From the NCBI GenBank assembly GCA_018240695.1, contig JAFEFH010000004.1, positions 1,032 to 65,031 on the forward strand: a stretch of 64,000 nucleotides of DNA, in the 5' to 3' direction. Of this stretch, positions 3,170-39,596 are shown piece by piece; position 1 is the first letter of the stretch; each line of letters opens with the position of its first letter. Source of the DNA: Pseudomonadota bacterium (GTDB lineage Bacteria; Pseudomonadota; Alphaproteobacteria; Reyranellales; Reyranellaceae). A program made the position numbers and the translations under genes. The notes under the pieces were generated by a model, which saw nothing but the letters and a program-made list of their open reading frames with translations, was not told the origin of the DNA and did no database searches.

Positions 3170-4450
3170 TCAGAAACTGGCCCGTGTCGCCGCGGGCTCG
3201 AGGGGAACGGCCGCGGGCGCTTCGGCCGGCGCGGGAGGATCGATCGAGGCGGGGCCGCGATTGGGATGCGCGAGACCGCGCGCGACGAGCTTGATGACGT
3301 TGGGCAGGCCGTCGAGCAGGCCGGGCACGATGACGTCGCTCGGCGCGCGCTGCTGCGGCAGCTGGCGCAGCGCGGTGGCCATGACGTGCGGATCGCGGCC
3401 CTTGTCGGCGTCGAGCATCTCCATCAGCCCGAGGTTGCGCGCGGCGCGCGCCCGGATGAGCTGCTCCATGCGCGGCCGCGTGCGCGGGATGATCAGCGCC
3501 TTCTTGTCGAACGACAGGATCTCGCAGAACGTGTTGTAGCCGCCCATCGCCACGACGCCGGCTGCGCGCTGCATCAGCGCGCCGAGATTGTTGGTGAAGG
3601 TGAGCGTGCGGATGTGCGGGAACTTCGCGGCGCGCTCCTTGAAGCTCTCGCGCGCGGCCGCCGACATGAACGGGCCGAACGCGATCACCGCGCCGTAGGG
3701 AATGTTGGGATCGCTCTCGTAAGCCGACAGCACCCAGTCGACCAGCGCGTCGCCGTCGCCGCCGCCGCCCGGCGTCACCAGGATGAACGGCCGGTCGAGC
3801 TCGTCGCCCTCGTGCGGCACGTCGGTGTGCAGCGGAAGCTCGCGGCGCAGGTAGCCGGTGTAGACGGTCTTGTGGCGGACCGACGGCGGCACGTCGATGC
3901 CCTGCAGCGGCTTGTTGATCTGCGGCAGGCCGTAGATCCAGATCTGGTCGTAGAGGTCGGCGAGCGCTGGCACGACGTTCTTGCGCTCCCACTCGACGGC
4001 GAGCTGGCCGGGATCGTCCATGACATCGCGCAGGCCCATGATCAGCGGCGTGCCGCGGTCCTTCAGCATCCGCAAGGTCGGCTCGACCTCGCCACGCAGG
4101 CCGAGCGGCTCCTTGTCGACGATGAACAGGTCGGGCCGGTAGATGTCGGCGGTGTCCTTGATGATGCGGGTGCGCATCTCCAGCGTGTGCTCGACGCCGA
4201 CCCGCAGGTTGGCGGAGTCGTACTCGCCGGTGTCGATCTGCTTGACCACGCCCGGGATGCGCACGAAGTCGATGCCGGAGCGGAATTCGTAGGAGCCGAT
4301 CACCGCCGAGCCCGAGACGATCAGGACCGAGATCGAGCTGTCGGCGCCGACGACCGCGTTGGCGATGGTCCGGCAGCGGCTGACATGGCCGAGGCCGTAG
4401 GAATCGTGGCTGTAGAGCAGCACACGCTTTGGCCGGCTGTTTGCAGGCAT
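3170..4450 (-). CDS. Glycosyltransferase, GT-B/GT28 C-terminal-like (COG4671-type)
   Basis: True start MPANSRPKRVLLYSHDSYGLGHVSR (ATG 4450) inside the long ORF 3170-6316; ILVTPGGGGDG and VAMGGYNTFCEI motifs. Confidence 0.88.
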   Translation of the reverse strand: MPANSRPKRVLLYSHDSYGLGHVSRCRTIANAVVGADSSISVLIVSGSAVIGSYEFRSGIDFVRIPGVVKQIDTGEYDSANLRVGVEHTLEMRTRIIKDTADIYRPDLFIVDKEPLGLRGEVEPTLRMLKDRGTPLIMGLRDVMDDPGQLAVEWERKNVVPALADLYDQIWIYGLPQINKPLQGIDVPPSVRHKTVYTGYLRRELPLHTDVPHEGDELDRPFILVTPGGGGDGDALVDWVLSAYESDPNIPYGAVIAFGPFMSAAARESFKERAAKFPHIRTLTFTNNLGALMQRAAGVVAMGGYNTFCEILSFDKKALIIPRTRPRMEQLIRARAARNLGLMEMLDADKGRDPHVMATALRQLPQQRAPSDVIVPGLLDGLPNVIKLVARGLAHPNRGPASIDPPAPAEAPAAVPLEPAATRASF

Positions 4451-4612
4451 CGAAAAGCCTCTCCCCCTGGCCGCGGCAGTGCCCCGGCCAGTTCTTGGCC
4501 GGACTATGCCATAAGCCGCCAGCGGCGCGAACCCCCGCTCCTGGCGTAAAATATCTAATGTAATCAATGGCATGATCGAATATAGGTAAGGTCGGTCGCG
4601 ACCCGGGTTTCG

Positions 4613-7324
4613 ATGCAGCGCAATCTTTTCACCTACATTTGGCGCCACAGCCGGCACGAGCAGCTCGTGATCCTGCTGCTCGTGGTGTTCGCGCAGGTCT
4701 TCTATTTCCTGTCGCTGAGCGTGCCGAAGTCGATCGTGAACAACGGCATCTCGGGCAATGCCTTCAAGGACAGCCCGACCGTCACCATGCTGTCGATGAC
4801 GATCCCGCTGCCCGGCTTTCTGGGCGGCAGCATCCGGCTGTTCGACGGCTTCTCGGCCGACCAGATGACCTATCTGGTGATCATGAGCTTCGTCTACCTG
4901 GGCGCGGTGATCGTGAACGCCCAGTTCAAGCGCAACATCAACACCCAGAAGGGCCGGATGGGCGAGCGCATGCTGCGCCGCCTGCGCTACGAGCTCTACG
5001 ACCGCATCCTGCGCTTCCCGGCCGCCCATTTCCGCAAGGTCAAGCAGGCCGAACTCGCGACCATGATCAAGGACGAGGTCGAGCCGCTCGGCGGCTTCAT
5101 CGGCGACGCCTACGTCCAGCCGATGTTCCTCGGCGGCCAGGCGCTGACGGCCGTCGCCTTCATCTTCATGCAGAACTGGCTGCTCAGCCTGGTGGTGATC
5201 GCGCTGCTGGCGGTGCAGATGATCATCGTGCCGCGGCTGCGCAAGCCGGTGCTGGTGCTCGGCCGCCAGCGCCAGCTCTCGGCGCGCCTGCTGGCCGGCC
5301 GCATCGCCGAGACCGCCGACGGCGTGAACGAGATCCACATCCACGGCTCGTCGAATTACGAGCGCGCCGACATCTCCGAGCGGCTGGGCCACATCTTCCG
5401 GATCCGCTTCGACCTCTACAACAAGAAGTTCGTCGCCAAGTTCTGGAACAACATCCTGTCGCAGGCGACGCCGTTCGCGATCTATCTGCTGGGCGGCTAC
5501 TTCGCGATCACCGGCAAGATGGACGTCGGCGCCGTGGTCGGCGTGCTGCTGGCCTACAAGGACCTGCCCTCGCCGATCAAGGAGCTGATCGACTGGGACC
5601 AGCAGCGCCAGGACGTGCAGATCAAGTACGAGCAGGTGATCGACCAGTTCCAGCCCGAGGGCATGATGCCCGAGGAGCTGCAGGCGATTCCCGAGGGCCC
5701 GCCGCCGCCGCTCGGCCACGAGATGGTGCTGTCGGGCATCACCGTGACCGAGGACGGCCGCGTGAAGCAGCTCGACGGCGTGTCGCTGGTCATCCCCACG
5801 GACAAGAAGATCGCCGTCATCGGCGCGTCGAGCTCGGGCAAGGACGTGCTGGGCCAGGTGATGGCGCGCATCGTCTATCCGTCGAGCGGGTCGGTGAAGA
5901 TCGACGGCAAGGACCTGCTGCAGATCCCCGAATTCCTGCTCGGTTCGCGCATGGCCTATATCGGCCAGGAGACCTACCTCTTCCCGCAAAGCGTGCGTGA
6001 CAACCTGCTGTTCGGCCTCAAGCACCGGCCGACGACGCCGGCCACCTACGAGGGCGAGCTTCAGACCGCGCGCGAGCTGTTCTGGCGCGAGGCCGAGCGC
6101 TCGGGCAACCCGGTGCTCGATCCCAACGCCGACTGGATCGACTACGAGCTGGCCGGCGCCACCGGCCCGGCCGACCTGCTGCCGTGCATGGTGCACGCGC
6201 TGAAGCAGGTCGAGCTCGACGACGACATCTATTCGCTCGGCCTGCGCGGCGCGATCGACGCGGGCAAGCGGCCCGACCTCGCCGACAAGATCCTGAAGGC
6301 GCGCCACGCGCTGCACGGCCGCTTGCAGGCGCCCGAGAACGCCGGGCTGATCGAGCCGTTCAACGCCGACAAGTACAACAAGAACCTGTCGGTGGCGGAG
6401 AACCTGCTGTTCGGCACCGCGCTCGGCGCGGCGTTCGACGGCGACAACCTCGCGGCCGATCCCTACATGCAGACGGTGCTGGCCCGCACCGGCCTCGACC
6501 AGGACCTGCTGCGCATGGGTCTGTCGATCGCCGAGACGATGGTCGAACTGTTCTCCGGCCTGTCACCCGACAACCCGCTGTTCGAGCAGTACAGCTTCAT
6601 CTCCGCCGACGAGCTGCCCAACGTCCGCCTGCTGTTGCAGCGCCTGGGCGGCAAGGGCGTCGAGGCGGTCCCGCCGGCCGACCGCGCGCGCCTGATGACC
6701 CTGCCGCTGCGCTACATCGAGGCGCGGCATCGCCTGGGCCTGATCGACGGCGCGATGGAGGACCGGCTGCTGGCCGCCCGCCGGGCGTTCGCCGAGAACC
6801 TGCCGCCGGCGCTGCGCGGCAATGTCGAATTCTACGACTTCGCCAAGTACAACAGCGCCGCCACCCTGCTGGACAACATCCTGTTCGGCCGCGTCGTCTA
6901 CGGCCAGGCGCAGGCCGAGAGCCGCATCCGCAAGCTGCTGACGGAGGTGATGGCCGAGCTGCACCTGCGCGATTCCGTGATCGAGGTCGGGCTGGAGTAC
7001 AATGTCGGCGTCGCGGGACGGCGCCTGCCGGCCACCCAGCGCCAGAAGCTCGGCATCGCGCGCGCGCTGATCAAGCGGCCGCAGTTCCTGGTGGTCAACG
7101 AGGCCGTTGCCGTGTTCGACGGGCGCACCCAGGATCGCATGCGCGACAACATCCTGGCCGCCGCCGACGGGCGCGGCGTGATGTGGATCGCCAACCGGCC
7201 GAGCCAGGCTTTGTCGTTCGACGAGGTCGTGGTCATGCAGGCGGGCAAGATCGTGGCGCACGGCGCGCCGCAGGAACTCGAGGCCAAGGGCGGGCTCTAT
7301 GCCGAGCTCATGGCGTCGACGTAG
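4613..7324 (+). CDS. ABC exporter (TMD + NBD fusion) with degenerate, insertion-split ATPase domain
   Basis: Multi-TM ABC membrane domain; Walker A-like GASSSGKD, Q-loop YIGQE, signature-like LPATQRQK, Walker B-like FLVVNE. Confidence 0.88.
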   Translation: MQRNLFTYIWRHSRHEQLVILLLVVFAQVFYFLSLSVPKSIVNNGISGNAFKDSPTVTMLSMTIPLPGFLGGSIRLFDGFSADQMTYLVIMSFVYLGAVIVNAQFKRNINTQKGRMGERMLRRLRYELYDRILRFPAAHFRKVKQAELATMIKDEVEPLGGFIGDAYVQPMFLGGQALTAVAFIFMQNWLLSLVVIALLAVQMIIVPRLRKPVLVLGRQRQLSARLLAGRIAETADGVNEIHIHGSSNYERADISERLGHIFRIRFDLYNKKFVAKFWNNILSQATPFAIYLLGGYFAITGKMDVGAVVGVLLAYKDLPSPIKELIDWDQQRQDVQIKYEQVIDQFQPEGMMPEELQAIPEGPPPPLGHEMVLSGITVTEDGRVKQLDGVSLVIPTDKKIAVIGASSSGKDVLGQVMARIVYPSSGSVKIDGKDLLQIPEFLLGSRMAYIGQETYLFPQSVRDNLLFGLKHRPTTPATYEGELQTARELFWREAERSGNPVLDPNADWIDYELAGATGPADLLPCMVHALKQVELDDDIYSLGLRGAIDAGKRPDLADKILKARHALHGRLQAPENAGLIEPFNADKYNKNLSVAENLLFGTALGAAFDGDNLAADPYMQTVLARTGLDQDLLRMGLSIAETMVELFSGLSPDNPLFEQYSFISADELPNVRLLLQRLGGKGVEAVPPADRARLMTLPLRYIEARHRLGLIDGAMEDRLLAARRAFAENLPPALRGNVEFYDFAKYNSAATLLDNILFGRVVYGQAQAESRIRKLLTEVMAELHLRDSVIEVGLEYNVGVAGRRLPATQRQKLGIARALIKRPQFLVVNEAVAVFDGRTQDRMRDNILAAADGRGVMWIANRPSQALSFDEVVVMQAGKIVAHGAPQELEAKGGLYAELMAST

Positions 7325-18315: not shown

Positions 18316-19152
18316 ATGAGTCGTTCCCTGTCTTTGCGCGGCCGTTGGCGGCGCCTGATGCTTGGCCTGCCGACGGTGCTGGGCCTCACGCCCGGCGGCT
18401 GGTTCATCCCGCACCGCTATGCGCCGCTGCTCGCGCCTCCCGGCGCGCAGCCGCCCTATGCCGCGATCGAGGTGCTGTTCGAGGAGAAGAGCGCGGCGTT
18501 CGGCGCCATGCTCGACCTGCTCGATGGGCGCGCCGCCGAGTTCGAGGCCATGCGCGGCCTGTTCGACCAGGCCTGGTTCCCCTCGCTCGACGCCGCCATG
18601 GCCTACACGCTGGTGCGCGAGCGCAAGCCGCTGCGCATCGTCGAGATCGGCTCCGGCCATTCCACTCGCGTGCTGGCCAAGGCCTCGGCCGGCGTCGCCG
18701 AGATCCTGGCGATCGACCCCGCGCCCCGCGCCGACATCGCGGGCCTGCCGGGCGTCACCATCGTGCCGTCGACCCTCCAGGCCGCCCCGACCGACCTGTT
18801 CGATCGCCTGCAAGGCGGCGACCTGCTGTTCATCGATTCCAGCCATATCCTGATGCCGGGCAGCGACGTCGACTATCTGCTGAACCGCGTGCTGCCGCGC
18901 CTGCCGGCGCGCACGCTGGTCCACATCCACGACATCTACCTGCCGTTCGACTATCCCGCGATGTGGGGCTGGCGGAACTACAACGAGCAGCAGGGCGTGC
19001 TGCCGCTGCTGACCACCGGCGCCTACACGCCGCTGTTCTCGAGCGTGTGGGCGGAGCGGCGCCTCGGCGACCGCCTCGCGCGGTCGGTCGTGCCCCGCCT
19101 GCCGCGCCCGGCCGACGCGCTGGCCGCCAGTCTCTGGCTCGAGAAGCGCTGA
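18316..19152 (+). CDS. Class I SAM-dependent methyltransferase (Methyltransf_24-like)
   Basis: RIVEIGSGHST, LFIDSSH, HIHDIYLPFDYP, YNEQ motifs. Confidence 0.82.
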   Translation: MSRSLSLRGRWRRLMLGLPTVLGLTPGGWFIPHRYAPLLAPPGAQPPYAAIEVLFEEKSAAFGAMLDLLDGRAAEFEAMRGLFDQAWFPSLDAAMAYTLVRERKPLRIVEIGSGHSTRVLAKASAGVAEILAIDPAPRADIAGLPGVTIVPSTLQAAPTDLFDRLQGGDLLFIDSSHILMPGSDVDYLLNRVLPRLPARTLVHIHDIYLPFDYPAMWGWRNYNEQQGVLPLLTTGAYTPLFSSVWAERRLGDRLARSVVPRLPRPADALAASLWLEKR

Positions 19153-20507
19153 TGTTCGCGGCGCTCCGCGGCTGGTTGTTCGACAGCGGCGGCGCCGACA
19201 AGCTTCCCGAGCGCGTGCGCGAGGCGATCCGCCTCCAGCAGGAGCGCAGCGAGATCCTGATCGCCTGGATCCAGCTCGCCATCGTGGCGCTGGTCACCAC
19301 GGTCTACGAGACCAGCGCCATGCCCGAGGGCGTGGTGCAGTACGACTTCGCGTTCGAGACGCAGGTCTTCGCCACCTACGGCGTGTTCTGCGTGATCCGC
19401 CTGTTCCTCGCGTGGCGGCGCCTGCTGCGGCCGTGGATGCTCTATGTGTCCGTCGTGGCCGACATGGCGCTGCTGATGGGGTTGATCTTCTCGTTTCCGC
19501 TGAAATACGCCCAGCCGGCGGCTTTCTATCTGAAGGTGCCGACCCTTCTCTATGTCTTCCTGTTCATCGCGCTGCGGGCGCTGCGCTTCGAGGCGCGCTT
19601 CGTCGTCTTCACCGGCCTCGTCGCCGTCGCCGGCTGGATCGGCCTGGTGCTCTACGTCGAAAGCGGCAAGGGCGGCCCGCTCGACGTCCGCACCGACGAC
19701 TTCGTCGAGTACATGACCTCGAACTCCCTGCTGATCCACGCCGAGGTCGACAAGATCATCGCCATCCTGCTCACCACCGCGGTACTGGCCATCGCCATCG
19801 CGCGGGCGCGGCATCTGCTGGTTCGCGCGGTGAGCGAAGGGGCGGCGGCGCGCGACCTCTCGCGCTTCTTCGATCCCGACGTCGCCGACCGCATCCGTTC
19901 GGCGCATGTCTCGGTGAAGGCCGGCGAAGGCGAGCTGCGCGACGCCACGATCCTGACCGTCGACCTGCGCGGCTTCACGCGCCTCTCGGTCGAGCTGGCG
20001 CCGGCCGACGTGATGAAGCTGTTGCAGGACTATCAGGGCAGGGTCTGCCCCTTGATCGTCGCGAACGGCGGCAACATCGACAAGTTCCTGGGCGACGGCA
20101 TCCTGGCCTCCTTCGGCGCGGTCACTCCCTCATCGACCGCCGCCGCCGATGCGATGCGCGCAGCCGATGCCATCCTCGCCGCCACGGCGGTGTGGGCGGC
20201 GGAACGGCAAGCCGCCGGCCTCGCCCCGCTCGCGGTAGGCCTGGCGTTGACGGCCGGCCGGGTCGTGTTCGGCGCGGTGGGCGACGGCGAGCGGCTTGAA
20301 TTCACCGTGATCGGCGACGCCGTGAACCTCGCGGCCAAGCTCGAGAAGCACAACAAGGAAGAGAAGACGCAGGGCCTGACCGATGCCGCGACCTATGCCC
20401 TCGCCGAGCGCCAGGGCTATCGGGCCCCTCGGCCGCACGAGCACCGCGCGGGACGCGTCGTCGGCGGCGTGCCGGATTTGGTCGATATTGTGGTTTTAGG
20501 GACCTGA
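19152..20507 (+). CDS. Membrane-anchored class III adenylate/guanylate cyclase
   Basis: TGATG coupling; several TM helices; TVDLRGFT, DKFLGDG, FTVIGDAVNLAAKLE. Confidence 0.9.
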   Translation: MFAALRGWLFDSGGADKLPERVREAIRLQQERSEILIAWIQLAIVALVTTVYETSAMPEGVVQYDFAFETQVFATYGVFCVIRLFLAWRRLLRPWMLYVSVVADMALLMGLIFSFPLKYAQPAAFYLKVPTLLYVFLFIALRALRFEARFVVFTGLVAVAGWIGLVLYVESGKGGPLDVRTDDFVEYMTSNSLLIHAEVDKIIAILLTTAVLAIAIARARHLLVRAVSEGAAARDLSRFFDPDVADRIRSAHVSVKAGEGELRDATILTVDLRGFTRLSVELAPADVMKLLQDYQGRVCPLIVANGGNIDKFLGDGILASFGAVTPSSTAAADAMRAADAILAATAVWAAERQAAGLAPLAVGLALTAGRVVFGAVGDGERLEFTVIGDAVNLAAKLEKHNKEEKTQGLTDAATYALAERQGYRAPRPHEHRAGRVVGGVPDLVDIVVLGT

Positions 20508-32129: not shown

Positions 32130-33173
32130 GTGAAGATCGAACCGCGCCAGGCCGAGGCCTTCCTCAAGAAGCCGGATCCGAAGATCCGGGCGGTGGTGAT
32201 CTACGGCAACGACGACGGGCTGATCGCCGAGCGCGCCACGCAACTCGCCAAGACCGTCTGCGAGGACCTCAAGGATCCGTTTCGCGTCATCGACATCGCG
32301 GGCGAAGCGCTGAAGCACGATCCGGCGCGGCTGGCCGACGAGTTCTCCGCCATGTCGCTGATGGGCGGGCGGCGCGTGATCCGCGTGCGGCCGGCCGGCG
32401 AGGAAGCGGCCGAGGCGCTGGAGAACCTGGTCGCCGCGACGGCGGGCGATGCGCTGATCGTCATCGAAGGCGGCAACCTCACGCCGCGCTCGACCTTGCG
32501 CACCATGGCCGAGACCGAGCCGACGCTGGCCGCCATGCCCTGCTACATGGATTCAGCGGAGGCACTGGAAGGGCTGGTCGAAAGCTCGGCACGCGCGCAG
32601 GGCCTCAACGTCGACGCCGATGCGCTGGACTGGATCGTCGAGCGGCTGGGCGGCGATCGCGGCCAGACGCGCAGCGAGATCGACAAGCTGCTGCTCTACA
32701 AGGCGGGCGACGACGCCAATACCATCACCATGGCCGACGCGATGGCGGTGCTGGGCGACACGGCGTCGATCGGCATCGACAATGTGATCGCCGCGACCTT
32801 CGACGGCGAGATGGTGGCGCTCGATCGCGCGCTCGACCGCGTGTTCGCCGAAGGCGGCAACCCGATCCAGCTCGTGCGCTCGTTGCAGCGTCACGCCGAC
32901 CAGCTTCACCTCGTGTCGGGACACGCCGCGCGCGGCGGCAACCTCGAGGGCGCGATGTTCAAGGCGCGCGGCCTGCCGCGCGGCGGCCCGGTGCGCCAGC
33001 GTTTCGAGCGGCACCTGCGGAGCTGGCCGCTCGCGCGCCTGAGCGCCGCGCTCACGCGCATCCTCGATGCCGAGCTGGAATGCAAGAGTACCGGCCTGCC
33101 CGACGAGGCGATCGCCCGCCGGCTGTGCCTCGGCCTGGCGAGCGCTGCCCGCCAGGCGCGCGCGCGCCGCTAG
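32130..33173 (+). CDS. holA: DNA polymerase III delta subunit
   Basis: VIYGNDDGLI, DPARLADE, LMGGRRVI, LGGDRGQTRSEIDKL; follows leuS. Confidence 0.92.
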   Translation: MKIEPRQAEAFLKKPDPKIRAVVIYGNDDGLIAERATQLAKTVCEDLKDPFRVIDIAGEALKHDPARLADEFSAMSLMGGRRVIRVRPAGEEAAEALENLVAATAGDALIVIEGGNLTPRSTLRTMAETEPTLAAMPCYMDSAEALEGLVESSARAQGLNVDADALDWIVERLGGDRGQTRSEIDKLLLYKAGDDANTITMADAMAVLGDTASIGIDNVIAATFDGEMVALDRALDRVFAEGGNPIQLVRSLQRHADQLHLVSGHAARGGNLEGAMFKARGLPRGGPVRQRFERHLRSWPLARLSAALTRILDAELECKSTGLPDEAIARRLCLGLASAARQARARR

Positions 33174-33994
33174 CCCTTCTTGCCGGCGCTCCCCGCCGAC
33201 AGCGGCGTCGCCGCATTCTCGGTCAGGATCAGGAAGGTGAAGCTCTCCTCGATGTAGAGCCGTACTTTTTCGGTGTCGTGCTCGAGGTAACCCAGCGAGA
33301 AGTCCTGGCCGACGGTGAGCTCGAAGTCGCCGCCGCGCTGGGAGATCACGAGACCGCCGTCGATGCCCGGCGCCCACACGATCTCGCCGTCGATCAGGCG
33401 ATTGACGTGGCTGATGATCGGATAGCCGCCGTCGGTGCGCGCCGCGAGGTCCTTGTAGAGCTGCTCGTTCAGCACCACGGAGAACGGGCCTTCGATGCCG
33501 TCGTCGCGCATGCGCGTGAGCGCCGATGCGACGGCGAGCGGATAGTCGGTATGGCTGGTGCCCAGCGGCACGGCCACGCCCTTGCGCGCTTCGCAGATGC
33601 CGGTGATCTGGGCGGCCTTGTAGCCGTGGAAGATCGCGCGGTCCTCGGCGATCGCGATCTCGCGCGCCGCCGCCGTCACTGAATCGAGATTGGGATCGCG
33701 CGCGCCGCGATCGATCGCGTCGAGTTCGGCGCGGCTGACGTCGAAGGGAATGCGCAGCTCGACCAGCGGCTGGATGCGGCGCAGGCGCGCCTGCACGTTC
33801 TTGCCCTTGGGCGGCGATTCGATCGGATCGGCGCGGCCGAGCTCGACGTCGGAGGCGCCCCAGCCGAGAGGTCCGCGGAAGTCGACGACGCGGCGCGCCG
33901 CCAGCAGCGCGCGCAGGGTGCGCTTGGCTTCCTTTTCGATCTCGACCCAGCCGGCCGGGGTGATCGGCGCGCGCTTATGGAAAAGATGGTTCAT
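33170..33994 (-). CDS. Family 1 encapsulin shell protein (Linocin M18-like)
   Basis: APITPAGWVEIE, RRVVDFRGPLG, PLVELRIPF, AIAEDRAIFHG, LTVGQDFSLGY, EESFTF. Confidence 0.96.
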   Translation of the reverse strand: MNHLFHKRAPITPAGWVEIEKEAKRTLRALLAARRVVDFRGPLGWGASDVELGRADPIESPPKGKNVQARLRRIQPLVELRIPFDVSRAELDAIDRGARDPNLDSVTAAAREIAIAEDRAIFHGYKAAQITGICEARKGVAVPLGTSHTDYPLAVASALTRMRDDGIEGPFSVVLNEQLYKDLAARTDGGYPIISHVNRLIDGEIVWAPGIDGGLVISQRGGDFELTVGQDFSLGYLEHDTEKVRLYIEESFTFLILTENAATPLSAGSAGKKG

Positions 33995-34392
33995 TGGTCC
34001 TGTCCTCCGGTCTTGCGCAGGCTGCCGATGCCGAGACTGCCGTCCTTCGACGGCCGCTCGTCGTCGCCGCCGTCACCACCGCCCGCTTCGCCTTTGCTCG
34101 CGGCCTCGACCGCCGTCAGCGAGCCCTCGGTGAACAGGTAGGTCTTGAGATGCTCGTCCATCTTGGGGTCGTTGCGCCGGATCCACTCCAGCGCCATCGC
34201 CGCGTGCTCCTTCTCCTCGTCGCGGTTGTGCTCGAGGATGGCGCGCAGCTCGGGATTCTTGGTGGCCTTTGCGCGCTGGTTGTACCAGTCGACCGCCTCC
34301 AGCTCTTCCATCAGCGACACGATCGCGCGGTGATTGTCGATGACGTCCGCCCCGAGCTTGTCGGGGTCTTCGTGCAGTGTCTCGCTCGCCAT
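33991..34392 (-). CDS. Encapsulated ferritin-like protein (EncFtn/Flp) with cargo-loading peptide
   Basis: SLMEELEAVDWYNQR and HNRDEEKEHAAM ferroxidase motifs; C-terminal DGSLGIGSLRK targeting peptide; ATG 34392. Confidence 0.96.
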   Translation of the reverse strand: MASETLHEDPDKLGADVIDNHRAIVSLMEELEAVDWYNQRAKATKNPELRAILEHNRDEEKEHAAMALEWIRRNDPKMDEHLKTYLFTEGSLTAVEAASKGEAGGGDGGDDERPSKDGSLGIGSLRKTGGQDQ

Positions 34393-34447
34393 TCGCCCAA
34401 ACCTTTCGCACGCGGACGAACGCATAGTCCGGCCGTTTCACCCCTTA

Positions 34448-34472
34448 AACGTCAGGGGCGTGCGCGAGTTCC
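34448..34472 (-). promoter_or_regulatory. EcfG (sigmaT/RpoE2)-type promoter of the encapsulin operon
   Basis: Minus strand GGAAC-TCGCGCACGCCCCTGA-CGTT (exact GGAAC-N16-CGTT), 55 nt before the Flp ATG. Confidence 0.75.
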
Positions 34473-34493
34473 GGCGATCGGGAAGATTCGAAA

Positions 34494-35219
34494 TCAGTCC
34501 TCGGGCGGCACGAACATATAGCCCGCGCCGCGCACCGTGCGGATAGATGTGGGGTGCGCGGGATCGACCTCGATCTTGCGGCGGATGCGCAGGATGCGGA
34601 TGTCGATCGCCCGGTCGAAGGCTTCCATCTCGCGGTGGCTGGTCGTCTCGAGCAGCCAGTCGCGGCTGAGCGGCCGGTTGGGATTCTCGGCGAAGATGCG
34701 CAGCAGCTCGAACTCGCCGGCGCGCAGCGGCACTTCCTCGCCGCTCAGCGCCGTCATGCGCCGCGCCACGAGATCGAGCAGGCACTTGCCGACACGGACC
34801 CGCTCGCCGGGCGTCGCCGCACTGGCGCCGCCGGCGCGGCGCAGCAGGGCCTTCATGCGCGCCAGCAGCGCGCGCGGCTCGTAGGGCTTGGCGATGTAGT
34901 CGTCGGCGCCGGTCTCGAGGCCGACCACCTGGTCGACCGTGTCGCCGCTCGCCGTGACCATGATGATGCCGACCCTGCGGCTGCGCTCGCGCAGGAAGCG
35001 GGCGAGAGCGAAGCCGTCGTCGCCGCCCGGCAGCCGAAGGTCGAGCAGTACCAGGGCCGGCGGGTCTTTCTCGACCAGCTTGCGCAAACCGGCGCCGGAC
35101 TCGACGCCGGACGCGCGATAGCCGTTTTCCTCGAGGAAATCAGTGAGAGTTTCACGTTGAAACTGTTCGTCTTCGACGACGATGACGTGCGGACGCGTAT
35201 CTTTAGGGCGGACAGCCAT
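34494..35219 (-). CDS. OmpR-family response regulator
   Basis: VEDE, VLLDLRLPG (phospho-Asp), GADDYIAKP, winged helix DRAIDIRILRIRRKIE...TVRGAGY. Confidence 0.94.
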   Translation of the reverse strand: MAVRPKDTRPHVIVVEDEQFQRETLTDFLEENGYRASGVESGAGLRKLVEKDPPALVLLDLRLPGGDDGFALARFLRERSRRVGIIMVTASGDTVDQVVGLETGADDYIAKPYEPRALLARMKALLRRAGGASAATPGERVRVGKCLLDLVARRMTALSGEEVPLRAGEFELLRIFAENPNRPLSRDWLLETTSHREMEAFDRAIDIRILRIRRKIEVDPAHPTSIRTVRGAGYMFVPPED

Positions 35220-35283
35220 ACCACTCCATCCTGCCGCCCGCGGCCCCCGACCACAAGCTGCGCGAAAGTTCTCCCAAACGAGA

Positions 35284-35311
35284 GCAGCGGCGCCGGGAGG
35301 GGCGCCGCTGC
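35284..35311 (-). terminator. GC hairpin, possible terminator between the small gene and the response regulator
   Basis: gcagcggcgcc-gggagg-ggcgccgctgc 11-bp stem; weak U-tract (TCTCGTTT) on the minus strand. Confidence 0.45.
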
Positions 35312-35382
35312 AAGACCGGTGATGGGAGTCCCGGCCGTCTCTCGCCGGGGTGTGCGTCCGGCGAAGGGGGATTTCGGGAAGT

Positions 35383-35646
35383 CTAGCGAAGCGCGCCGCC
35401 CGCGAGCGGGGTCTGGCCGCGGATCGCCGCGAGGAAGAAGGCGCGGGCCTGGTCCGGCGCCATCGCCTGGAGCCGCCGGGTCTCGGCCGGCGCGGGGGCG
35501 GCGGCGACAGCGACCGCGGGAGCGGCCGTTTCGGCTTCGCCGACCGGGGCGGCGTAGACCCGGCTGCAGATCATGGTGGCGAGAACGCCGGAGGTGACGA
35601 GAACGAGGGCTTCCTTGACCATCGGACGGTACAGAATGTTCATCAT
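35383..35646 (-). CDS. Small exported/membrane hypothetical protein
   Basis: 87 aa; RBS GAGGGAG; hydrophobic segment then VYA-AP cleavage-like site; Ala/Pro linker. Confidence 0.6.
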   Translation of the reverse strand: MMNILYRPMVKEALVLVTSGVLATMICSRVYAAPVGEAETAAPAVAVAAAPAPAETRRLQAMAPDQARAFFLAAIRGQTPLAGGALR

Positions 35647-35719
35647 CGTCTTTCTCCCTCTTGCGGCGTCGGCGCCGTTTCGATGAGGCGAACCTAGGCC
35701 TCGGCGGTTTCCCGAAGAT

Positions 35720-35821
35720 TACGGGTACCTGTCGTTTGGTTTCGTGGGTTACGCGGACCTTGCCCGCACACCCTTCGAAAGCGCTCGCGAAACCCACGAA
35801 ACATTTTCGCCGCGCCGCGTT
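35720..35821. promoter_or_regulatory. Mirror-symmetric divergent promoter/operator region
   Basis: 16/17 inverted repeat gtttcgtgggttacgcg (35739-35755) / cgcgaaacccacgaaac (35786-35802); each outward arm reads GAAAC-N15-CGTW. Confidence 0.55.
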
Positions 35822-35855
35822 ACCGGCAGGAAACCCGGACAGGGGACGATAAGGG

Positions 35856-38800
35856 ATGAACGACAATCAGCGCCTCGAACGGGTCCTTACCGATCGCCTG
35901 ATGACCGGCAACGTCGCGTTGCGGACCCTGGCGCTCGCCCTGTGGCTGGTCTTCGCCATCGTTTACTGGGACATCGCGCCATGGTGGATGATCGCCGGTC
36001 CGCTCGCGCTGCACATGCTGGCGATGGGCGGCTTCATGCTGCTGACGATGACCTATCGCGCGCGGCCCGAGTCGCGACCGGTCGCGCTCTGGCGTCGCGA
36101 CTACATCCTCTATGCGGCGCTCACGGGCATTTCGTACGGCGCGGGCGGCGCTCTCCTGGTCGGCTTGCCGCCGGCCGAGCCGCGGCTGGTCGTCACGACA
36201 GCGCTGCTGCTGTGCGCGGCGCTGGCGCCGGGCCGTCTCTACGAACCGCGCTCGTATCTCGCCTTCGCCGGCCTGTCGCTGCTCATCCTCGCGATCGGTC
36301 TGTTGAAGGCGCAGGACCCGCTGTCCTGGGCGCTGGCCACCGGCACGATGATCTATCTCGTGGCGCTGGTGCTGCAAAACCGGCCGCAGTATCGCGCCCA
36401 GCGCGAGCAGATCGCGCTCACGCTCGCCAATGAAGACCTCGCCAAGCGCCACGCCGCGGCCGAGGCCGACGCGCGCGCCGCCCGCGACACCTTGAACGAC
36501 GCGCTCGAGAGCCTGCCGGTGGCGATCGCGCTGTGGGATGCCGACGACCGCCTGATCCTGCGCAACAAGAATTACGCCGAGCGCCTGCAGAACCTGCCGG
36601 AAGCGACCACGCCCGGCGTGCGCTTCGCCGACGCCGTGCGCGCCGCCACGTACAAGGCGCCCACGCCGGTCGCGCCCCAAGGCAAGGAAGAGGGCTTCAT
36701 CGCCGGCGCCACCAAGATGCATCAGGAAGGAGGTACGGCGGAGTATCGCGCCGGCGACGACCACTGGCTGCGCGGCCAGTCGCGCCGCACCGGCAATGGC
36801 GGCACGGTCACCACCATCGTCGACATCTCCGAACTGAAGCGCCGCGAAAAGGAGGCGACCGATTCGCGCGCCGTGCTCCAGTCGGTGTTCGACAACATGA
36901 ACGACGGCGTCATGCTCTACGAAGCCGACGGCCGATGGGTCTACCAGAACCCGGCGATGGCGCGCCTGCACGAGATGCCCAACGAACTGCTGGCGACGCT
37001 GCCGACTTTCGCCGACATCGTGCGCTACCGCGCCCAGCGCGGCGACTACGGCCCGGTCGAGGACCTGCCGGGCGGGCTTGAAGGCTGGATCGAAAGCAGG
37101 GTCGACCGCTTCAAGGGCGCCGACCAGCCGGCCGAGCGGCGGCGCGCCGTCTCCGGCCGCACCGTCGAGGTGACGTACCGCCGCCTGAGCGACGGCCGCG
37201 TGCTCACCAACCATCGCGACATCACCGCGATCGTCGAGCAGGAGGAACGGCTGAACGCCGCGCGCACGGAATCGGAGAACGCGCGCACCACGCTCCAGAC
37301 CGTGCTCGACAACATGATCGACGGCGTCATGCTGTTCGACCAGGGCTTCCGCTGGCGCTTCATGAACCGCCAGCTCATGGAGTTTCAGCGCTTCACCACC
37401 GACGTGGCGTTCCCGGGCGCCTCGGGCCGCGACATCCTGCGCTTCCAGGCGCGGCGCGGCGACTTCGGGCCGGCCAGGGACGAGGCCGAGGTCGAGGCCA
37501 TGGTCGAGGACCGCGCGCAGCGCATGCTGGCCGCCGACGGCGCGCGCTACGCGCGGCGCACCGCCTCCGGCCGGATCATCGAGTTCAACTTCAAGCCGCT
37601 GCCCGACGGCGGCACGCTCGCGATCTATCGCGACATCACCGAGATCGAGGAGGCGCGCGCCAAGGCCGAGGCGGCGCAGACCCTGCTCGACGACGCGCTC
37701 GACAGCATGACCAGCGGCGTGGCGATCTGGGATCGCGACGAGCGGCTGATCCAGGGCAACGCGGCCTATCGCTCGGTCAACCGCGACCTGCCGGAGATCG
37801 TCATGCCCGGCACTCCCTTGCCGGTCGCCGCCGCCGCCGCCATGCGCGCGCAGAACCTGCTGCTCGACCACCCCATTCCCGAGGCCGAGGTCGAGCGGCT
37901 GACGCAGGCTGTCGTGCAGCAGCATCACAAGGGCGAGGGCGCGTTCGAGTACCAGACCGGCCCGCAAGCCTGGACCCGCCTCACCGCCGCGCGCACCAAG
38001 GCCGGCGGCTTCGTGTCGGTGTTCGCCGACATCACCGAATTGCGGCAGCGCCAGCGCGACCTGCGCCGCGAACGCGACGCGGCCCGGACGGCACGCACCG
38101 AGGCCGAGGCCGCCAACCAGGCCAAGTCGACCTTCCTCGCCACCATGAGCCACGAGATCCGCACGCCGATGAACGGCGTCGTCGGCACCGCCGAGCTGCT
38201 GGAGCGCGAGCCGCTGAACGAACGCCAGAAGCGGTTGGTCGGCACGGTGCGCAGCTCGGCCGCGGCGCTGCTGCGCATCATCGACGACGTGCTCGACTTC
38301 TCGAAGATCGAGGCCGGCCGCATGGAGCTGGAGGAGGCGCCGTTCTCGTTGCGCGGGCTGATCGACGGCATGACCGAGACGCTGTCGGTGCAGGTCGAGA
38401 AGAAGGGCCTGGCGATCGCCGCCATCGTCGAGCCGGGCGTGCCCGACCTGCTGCTGGCCGACGCCACGCGGCTGCGCCAGATCCTGTTCAACCTGATCGG
38501 CAACGCCACCAAGTTCACCGACCGTGGCGCCATCACCGTGCGCGCCCATGCGCTGCGCATCGACCCCGAGCATGTGACCCTCGGCATCGCCGTCAGCGAC
38601 ACCGGCATCGGCATGGACGCCGCCCAGCAGGCGCGCCTGTTCCAGCCTTTCTCGCAGGCCGACAGTTCGACCACGCGCCGCTATGGCGGCACGGGTCTCG
38701 GCCTGTCGATCGTGCGGCGCCTCGCCGAGCTGATGGACGGCACGGTGTCGGTCGACAGCGCGCCGGGCCGCGGCTCGACCTTCAACGTCACGGTGAAGGT

Positions 38801-39596
38801 GAAACGCGCCGCCGACGTCCCGCCGGCCCCGCGCCCTTCGGAGCCGCTGCCGCTCCAGACCGCGGGCAAGCGCGTCCTGGCGGTCGACGACTACGACGTG
38901 AATCTCGAGGTGCTGGCGGGCCAGTTCGAGATCCTCGGCGTGGCGCTCGACACCGCGATCAACGGCATCGAGGCGCTGAACCTGTGGCGCGCCCAGCCCT
39001 ATGCGCTGGTGCTGACCGACATCCACATGCCCGACATGGACGGCTTCGAGCTGACGCGCCAGATCCGCGCCGAGGAGGGCGTGCAGGGCGGCCGGGGAAG
39101 TGGGCGGCCACGCACGCCGATCGTGGCGCTGACCGCCAACGCGCTGAAGGGCGAGGCCGAGCGCTGCCTGACGGCCGGCATGGACGACTACCTGACCAAG
39201 CCCCTGACCCTCGACCGGTTGCGCGAGGCCGTCGCGCGCTGGACGAGCGATGCGCCCGCCACCGCACCGGCCGCCCAGAGCCCGCCGCCGGCCGACGTCG
39301 CTGTCGACCGCTCCGTGGTCGCGCAGATGTTCGGCGACAACCAGGCCGCCATCGCCCGCGTGCTCGGCCGCTTCCGCGACGCCGGGGTGAAGCTGCTGGC
39401 CGAGATCGACGCGGCCAAGGCCGACGCCAAGCTTGTGCGCGAGCTCGCCCACAAGCTGAAGGGCGCCGCGCGCGCCGCTGGCGCCGTGCGGCTCGGCGAT
39501 CTCGCGGCCATGCTCGAGAAGTCGGGCGCCTCGGAGGATATCGAGCCGCTCCACACCGAATGGGAGCGCGTCGCCGCCGCCCTCGCCGCCGGCTGA
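35856..39596 (+). CDS. Hybrid sensor histidine kinase (TM sensor, 4 PAS-like repeats, HisKA, HATPase, REC, Hpt)
   Basis: [57 protein letters not shown]. Confidence 0.96.

Follow-up and report, generated by a model that had tools for sequence, protein, structure and literature searches.

An EcfG-type promoter motif conserved upstream of EncFtn encapsulin operons in Alphaproteobacteria

The encapsulin operon and the motif that precedes it

The stretch analysed here, referred to as the window, comprises 64,000 nucleotides (64 kb) of contig JAFEFH010000004.1 (assembly GCA_018240695.1) from an alphaproteobacterium of the family Reyranellaceae. It carries a two-gene operon, encFtn-enc, for an encapsulin compartment and its ferritin-like cargo, and the subject of this report is the promoter motif that precedes the operon. 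Coordinates written from high to low lie on the minus strand. The first gene (34392..33991) encodes EncFtn, the encapsulated ferritin-like cargo of 133 residues, which starts at ATG 34392 and stops at TGA 33993..33991. The second gene (33994..33170) encodes a family 1 encapsulin shell protein of 274 residues. The shell ATG and the EncFtn TGA overlap in the tetranucleotide ATGA (33994..33991, read directly), as had been seen in an earlier, sequence-only reading of the window in which the cargo gene was called Flp, and the overlap implies a single transcript and possibly coupled translation. Cargo and shell genes are likewise adjacent in the related loci described below wherever a shell gene was found.

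From family and structure matches the gene pair is a classical family 1 encapsulin operon, and the assignments are unambiguous. EncFtn matches PF22277 (Pfam, 1.4e-40) and the NCBIfam subfamily TIGR04535 ‘encapsulin-associated ferritin-like protein’ (141 bits, cutoff 125). The shell protein covers the whole of the Pfam model PF04454 (5e-88) and scores 304.6 bits against the NCBIfam equivalog NF041155 ‘family 1 encapsulin nanocompartment shell protein’ (cutoff 100). The closest solved structures are Rhodospirillum rubrum EncFtn for the cargo (PDB 33bf/5da5, E 4e-46) and the type 1 encapsulin shell PDB 9ry4 for the shell (E 1.5e-87).

In a residue-by-residue alignment the MEELEAVDWY and HNRDEEKEHAAM blocks of EncFtn are identical to those of R. 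rubrum EncFtn. These two blocks contain the ferroxidase and entry-site residues E31, E32, E34, W38 and Y39 together with E62 and H65 (R. rubrum numbering), all of which are invariant in an alignment of 19 EncFtn homologues. The C-terminus consists of a Gly/Asp-rich linker followed by the loading peptide DGSLGIGSLR, which is invariant across the 19 homologues and aligns with DGSLGIGSLK of R. rubrum EncFtn; its GSLGIGSL core was placed by alignment at residues 118–125 (34041..34018). Both the full ferroxidase motifs and the cargo-loading peptide proposed earlier are thus borne out by comparison with R. rubrum EncFtn. Assembly of an icosahedral shell and mineralization of iron are predicted from close homology to the solved and assayed R. 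rubrum proteins.

The N-terminal sequence MASETLHE, beginning at ATG 34392, is common to all EncFtn homologues and marks the true start. An in-frame ATG further upstream, at 34425, was rejected as the start because the N-terminus that it would add is unconserved and the codon lies inside a conserved non-coding block of the leader (see below). At the other end of the operon the shell gene converges with holA, and the two stop codons (TAG 33172..33170 for the shell gene, TAG 33171-33173 on the plus strand for holA) share a CTAG palindrome at 33170-33173. As the stop codons overlap there is no room for a terminator between the two genes.

The gene upstream of encFtn, on the same strand, encodes an OmpR-family response regulator, and the motif (34472..34448) is placed in the 68-nt gap between the regulator stop (34494) and the longest possible EncFtn start. 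Read directly from the minus strand, it consists of a −35 element GGAAC (34472..34468), a 16-nt spacer tcgcgcacgcccctga and a −10 element CGTT (34451..34448), and it is separated from ATG 34392 by 55 nt. The exact GGAAC-N16-CGTT that the sequence-only reading had reported upstream of the cargo gene was therefore found at this position, and its description there as the alphaproteobacterial EcfG consensus agrees with the published EcfG1 motif, EcfG itself being confined to Alphaproteobacteria (PMC3892343). Promoters of EcfG (ECF15, of the extracytoplasmic function or ECF sigma factors; also SigT or RpoE2) share this motif, and its distance upstream of the start codon is as expected for them. Published EcfG-dependent genes of Sphingomonas melonis include GCAAC variants, with distances of 2–10 nt between the motif and the coding sequence. 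By the usual spacing of ECF promoters, transcription would start about 7 nt past CGTT, near 34441 (34439..34442).

Shuffled sequences gave an expectation of 0.24 exact matches to GGAAC-N16-CGTT per 64 kb on both strands together, and the chance of a match falling in the correct gap and on the correct strand is about 1e-4. The sole other exact match in the window (20064..20088, minus strand) lies antisense inside a gene with an adenylate/guanylate cyclase domain (18345-20507, plus strand); it is probably a chance match, or may be an antisense promoter. No sigma-70-like promoter was predicted within 33000-36000.

Conservation of the motif and its two layouts

EncFtn loci of species-representative genomes were fetched with the alignment of EncFtn homologues, and the best 80 of about 600 were compared (individual loci are given below as L numbers). 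Judged by record titles and synteny, 35 of the 80 are alphaproteobacterial, mostly Reyranella-like; the other 45 are gamma-, beta-, actino- or myxobacterial, from Rokubacteria, or from other groups. The nearest relative of the window is an uncultured alphaproteobacterial metagenome-assembled genome (MAG), with identities of 82% for EncFtn, 89% for the shell and 94% for the regulator. The motif was searched for on the sense strand, up to 150 nt upstream of EncFtn, in an exact form (GGAAC-N16/17-CGTT) and in a relaxed form (G[GC]AAC-N16/17-NGTT) that allows GCAAC or NGTT.

The exact motif is present at 23 of the 35 alphaproteobacterial loci and at none of the 45 others, and the relaxed motif at 31 of the 35 and again at none of the 45. 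About 0.003 exact matches would be expected per locus, and the flanks of these same loci give a background rate of 0.003–0.005 per 155 nt. With the loci aligned at the motif, only GGAAC(y) and (r)CGTT show high information content. As spacers and flanks are random, the motif is a footprint and not the product of general sequence similarity. Its confinement to Alphaproteobacteria matches the class-restricted distribution of EcfG (PMC3892343). Conservation upstream of other alphaproteobacterial Flp-encapsulin operons, which the sequence-only reading had named as a way to check its proposal, is accordingly observed, R. rubrum included.

Loci L001–L022 share holA-leuS synteny with the window, giving 23 syntenic loci when the window is counted, and therefore represent one clade and not independent cases. 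Within these 23 loci the motif stays with EncFtn whichever gene adjoins it upstream. The exact motif also occurs in separate lineages (L023, L024/L030, L049 and L054) with different neighbours and shells of 47–60% identity. In the R. rubrum operon, which was retrieved via its exact protein, GGAAC (L081 2935-2939) and CGTT (2956-2959) precede Rru_A0973, 41 nt before the ATG. Two of the MAGs compared, L009 and L023, are titled Asaia bogorensis. The label of L009 looks wrong because the locus has Reyranella-like synteny, with holA and leuS 81–85% identical to those of the window.

Exact matches elsewhere in the alphaproteobacterial flanks are non-random, the motif being carried by stress genes close to the operon. 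It lies 1–33 nt before the open reading frames (ORFs) of CsbD (L049), PRC-barrel and Fe/Mn superoxide dismutase (L025) and BON (L023, where the BON-domain gene directly follows the shell gene), and 88 nt before an MgtC gene (L049). In L006, L009 and L015 it is found 21–32 nt before a gene divergent from EncFtn that encodes a DUF2846-like lipoprotein (Pfam match below the gathering score). The motif of the divergent gene is its own and lies on the other strand (minus in locus coordinates; L006 3933-3909, L009 3963-3939, L015 3949-3925); stress promoters thus stand back to back in the short intergenic region. In L025 EncFtn lacks a motif of its own and follows the PRC-barrel gene, which bears one, at a distance of 36 nt. 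The flanks of the non-alphaproteobacterial loci contain only two motif matches in 615 kb. A published table of EcfG-regulated genes of S. melonis includes PRC-barrel, general-stress and two Dps genes.

In three of these loci (L025 651-3964, L049 294-5552 and L023 5185-5559) the operon lies inside clusters whose genes each carry the exact motif. The clusters include genes for PRC-barrel, Fe/Mn superoxide dismutase, small charged proteins, CsbD, MgtC and BON, and look like a general-stress gene island.

The distance between motif and start codon defines two layouts. Class A is made up of the window plus 13 loci. Here the motif begins some 71–92 nt before the ATG (about 78 nt as a rule, 92 in L001) and is followed by a leader that contains a Shine–Dalgarno (SD) sequence and a conserved block. 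The class A SD is GGAGG, the window having an SD-like GAAAGG (34407..34402). From the predicted start to the ATG, the 5′ leader of the window is about 48 nt long (34438..34393), and a pattern search places the block CGGCCGGACTATGCGTTCGTCC within it at 34435..34414. The consensus of the block is CGGyCGGACTA(t)GyGTTCGyCC, 21–22 nt in length, situated about 8–30 nt past the predicted transcription start. It occurs in 11 of these loci, once each and solely in the EncFtn leader, and nowhere else in the 84 loci or the window (L001 3947-3968; L003/L005 3961-3981; L004 3959-3979; L013/L020/L021 3960-3980; L016/L022 3960-3981; L018 3825-3846). In class B, formed by eight loci (L002, L006, L008, L009, L011, L015, L017 and L019), the motif begins 33–34 nt before the EncFtn ATG. 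Its CGTT lies 8–9 nt from the ATG and no SD is present, which implies a leaderless encFtn mRNA. A second class B motif is often found further upstream, ending 39–69 nt before the ATG. Both classes occur within one syntenic clade, and the promoter layout has therefore switched within it.

The leader of the window offers a possible pairing between the arms GCGTTCGTCCG (34423..34413) and TGGGCGAATGG (34399..34389), the latter lying over the start codon. A stem of 10–11 bp formed from the 3′ half of the block is possible in most class A leaders. Its partner is either the sequence that covers the AUG (window, L001, L016, L018 and L022) or the spacer between SD and AUG (L020 and L021), and a weaker stem of 6–7 bp is possible in L003 and L005. 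One stem position shows U-A, C-G or U.G pairs. Leader folding energies were no better than those of shuffles (z −1.9 to +0.7), RNAalifold, applied to leaders of class A, predicted a small hairpin that lacks covariation, and no Rfam family matched the leader. Because the shuffles were not beaten and no covariation was seen, a leader structure is not claimed as established. The conserved block may serve as an operator or act in translation.

Transcription and regulation of the operon

Transcript evidence comes from L002, an orthologous locus of the Reyranella aquatilis type. Sequencing run X27, the kind of which was guessed to be RNA and which has an RNA-like depth profile, gave a sole substantial contig over the 8.4 kb of this locus (3952-5249; 1298 nt, depth 13.3). 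The contig spans EncFtn (4001-4372) and the shell gene (4387-5208) and extends 41 nt beyond the shell stop into the 3′ end of holA. Depth is zero over the 3.9 kb upstream, and otherwise pieces at depth 4–6 lie over holA and almost nothing over leuS. L002 has a distal motif (GGAAC 3906-3910, N17, CGTT 3928-3931) and a proximal one (GGAAC 3967-3971, CGTT 3988-3991) before the ATG at 4001. The contig starts 21 nt past the distal CGTT, its ends being approximate, and for this reason X27 is not a map of transcription start sites. It points to a bicistronic unit in L002 that starts within the intergenic region, shortly past an EcfG-type motif. Runs X30–X34 gave scattered fragments only on L002, and runs over L005 were rejected as RNA evidence, being DNA of uniform depth. 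Three RNA runs holding about 5% of the words of the window yielded short contigs of diverged homologues and nothing over the leader.

The main promoter of encFtn-enc is likely to be an EcfG-type (ECF15) general-stress promoter, with a probability that we put at roughly 0.8. The proposal of the sequence-only reading that the operon belongs to the EcfG regulon is supported by the conservation of the motif, its presence in R. rubrum and on neighbouring stress genes, and the RNA contig of the relative. The dependence itself is inferred: EcfG as the sigma factor, the exact start of transcription, induction by stress and the physiological role are predictions.

Several points weigh against this assignment. 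The link to EcfG is drawn from sequence in every organism considered, and no ecfG-nepR-phyR genes were present among the 10 small ORFs checked in the window. No RNA covers the promoter of the window, the sequence of which is held by metagenomic DNA runs only, and the X27 evidence is an assembled contig of guessed RNA status with a 5′ end that falls 11–14 nt short of the predicted start. Some 22 positive loci come from one syntenic clade and hence are non-independent. The motif is lacking at three alphaproteobacterial loci (L033, L040 and L046), and at four the −10 element of the motif carries one mismatch. Finally, 21 nt separate the regulator stop from GGAAC, which leaves no space for a terminator, and read-through from the regulator gene could therefore contribute to expression.

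This last arrangement would suit a scheme in which the adjacent OmpR-type regulator and a PAS-containing hybrid kinase mainly control the operon, by read-through or activation, and the motif is secondary. Retention of the regulator next to EncFtn in 8 of the 23 syntenic loci counting the window (L001, L005, L014, L016, L018, L019 and L022, at 86–94% identity) would also suit it. Such control is nevertheless very unlikely, as the other 15 syntenic loci have neither regulator nor kinase at this place and nearly all keep the motif, the L002 contig begins within the intergenic region after a stretch of zero depth, and no operator-like repeat common to the regulator-bearing loci was found. Recognition of the motif by another ECF sigma factor is unlikely too. 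Such a factor might respond to oxidative stress or metals, or be an EcfG paralogue that receives an input of its own, and it would put the operon outside the PhyR-NepR response. Many ECF groups use an AAC-rich −35 with a CGT-rich −10, two papers describe several EcfG paralogues in many Alphaproteobacteria (PMC3892343, PMC4814048), and the small ORFs checked in the window included no ecfG. However, the exact pair of elements is the published EcfG motif, typical general-stress genes (CsbD, PRC-barrel, BON) carry it in the same loci, and like EcfG it is confined to Alphaproteobacteria. That the motif is a functionless chance match might be suggested by the antisense intragenic occurrence at 20064..20088, but is extremely improbable. 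The comparative data already refute it, with 23–31 of 35 loci against 0 of 45 and randomized spacers, and the expectation by chance is low (0.24 per 64 kb; about 1e-4 for gap and strand).

Iron or peroxide regulators (Fur, Irr, RirA or OxyR/PerR-like) might replace sigma control or add to it, perhaps via the leader block, and this we regard as possible though doubtful. The cargo is a ferroxidase, and the 21–22 nt block, lying just past the predicted transcription start in 11 loci, is placed where an RNA element or the operator of a repressor might be expected. Against this, the loci with the leaderless layout are entirely without the block, and 37 upstream regions contained no Fur box (best 7 mismatches in 19), no Irr iron control element (4 mismatches or more) and no Mur box that is conserved (3 mismatches or more, at the single locus L040), a negative that is weak because the consensus sequences come from other taxa. 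The statement of the sequence-only reading that the compartment is under general-stress rather than iron control thus fits weakly: it agrees with the lack of recognizable Fur, Irr and Mur boxes in these regions, but the leader block could carry a second input.

Under EcfG control the operon would work as follows. Stress would cause phosphorylation of PhyR, and PhyR~P would capture NepR, the anti-sigma factor, and so free EcfG. EcfG-RNA polymerase would bind GGAAC (34472..34468) and CGTT (34451..34448) and transcribe from about 34441 to give one bicistronic mRNA. EncFtn decamers would be loaded into the shell via the C-terminal GSLGIGSL, after which EncFtn would oxidize Fe(II) and the shell would store the resulting mineral. 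The effect would be less Fenton chemistry in stressed or non-growing cells, in parallel with Dps in the EcfG and RpoS regulons. As a tentative and somewhat doubtful extension, EncFtn compartments may be a conserved general-stress effector, from Reyranella-like bacteria to R. rubrum, with an added layer of translational control in which the conserved 5′ block of the leader would pair across the SD or start codon and hold the mRNA shut until a signal arrives; in sister lineages the EcfG promoter would instead start a leaderless mRNA right at the AUG. If this layer is real, control of compartment synthesis in stressed, non-growing cells would act on transcription as well as on translation.

The object itself is a known system, the family 1 EncFtn encapsulin, and what is new is the conserved and apparently undescribed regulatory link. 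The earlier claim that a connection between encapsulins and EcfG is undescribed holds within the searchable literature, where full texts contained nothing relevant that joins encapsulin or linocin with EcfG, PhyR, NepR, RpoE2, SigT, ECF sigma factors or the general stress response (subscription-only papers being outside this scope). No encapsulin or linocin is listed in the EcfG regulons tabulated for S. melonis, Sphingopyxis granuli, Bradyrhizobium diazoefficiens and Methylobacterium extorquens. Papers that name Rru_A0973 are structural. Neither a 2024 review of EncFtn (PMC11202242), which reports just the induction by oxidative stress in Thermotoga maritima and Myxococcus xanthus, nor a genome-wide survey of encapsulins from 2021 names a promoter or a sigma factor.

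Encapsulins are well understood as structures, and far less so in the conditions and purpose of their synthesis. With a conserved EcfG-type promoter, EncFtn compartments would come under a definite programme of regulation and, like Dps, count among the effectors by which the general stress response protects against iron and peroxide. The general-stress regulon, which consists mostly of small proteins of unknown function, would gain a protein organelle. The presence of the motif in R. rubrum, the structural model organism, allows a direct and inexpensive test.

Related systems and neighbouring genes

The R. rubrum EncFtn-encapsulin system (Rru_A0973/Rru_A0974; PDB 5da5, 33bf, 9ry4) resembles that of the window in having the cargo gene before the shell gene, identical ferroxidase blocks, the DGSLGIGSL peptide and the GGAAC-N16-CGTT motif, the two EncFtn proteins being about 60–65% identical. 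The R. rubrum genes are separated by a gap of 87 nt, whereas those of the window overlap. The neighbourhoods also differ, the window having holA-leuS and the two-component pair, and the leader block of the window was not seen in R. rubrum.

In Escherichia coli the mini-ferritin Dps is under the control of RpoS. Dps also belongs to the EcfG regulon of S. melonis, and there it is likewise an iron-oxidizing and iron-sequestering protein under a general-stress sigma factor. The system of the window differs from Dps in consisting of two components, an HK97-fold shell and a separate decameric ferroxidase cargo, with no DNA binding. The storage capacity of encapsulins is far larger than that of Dps (PMC7762939). 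The EncA-EncBCD system of Myxococcus xanthus and the encapsulin of Thermotoga maritima, both with ferritin-like cargo, are reported to be induced by oxidative stress (PMC11202242). These organisms belong to other phyla, and their systems have been assigned neither a promoter nor a sigma factor. The M. xanthus shell is T=3 and holds several cargos, of which EncB and EncC match the EncFtn of the window weakly (E 1e-9 to 6e-11).

Searches with tblastn also gave 104-residue EncFtn-like proteins encoded on plasmids of Bradyrhizobium and Rhodopseudomonas. These have no shell gene, are not encapsulin operons and were set aside as uninformative for the motif. The two examples, L083 2501-2815 (Bradyrhizobium betae plasmid) and L084 2501-2815 (Rhodopseudomonas plasmid), show 36–40% identity, lack the loading peptide region and adjoin mbfA (an iron exporter) or heavy-metal ATPase/CDF genes. 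Both plasmids are conjugative, and the proteins represent a shell-less relative in a metal-resistance context.

The response regulator upstream of encFtn (35219..34494) has the Pfam domains Response_reg and Trans_reg_C and scores below every NCBIfam equivalog cutoff. A hybrid histidine kinase of 1246 residues (35856..39596, plus strand) lies divergent to it and contains four PAS_7 domains, PAS_8, HisKA, HATPase_c, REC and Hpt. The kinase co-occurs with the regulator in L001, L005, L014, L016, L018 and L022; elsewhere in the syntenic clade the gene upstream of EncFtn is unrelated or divergent. Just upstream of the regulator gene, at 35284-35311 on the minus strand, a GC-rich hairpin is followed by a short T-rich tail.

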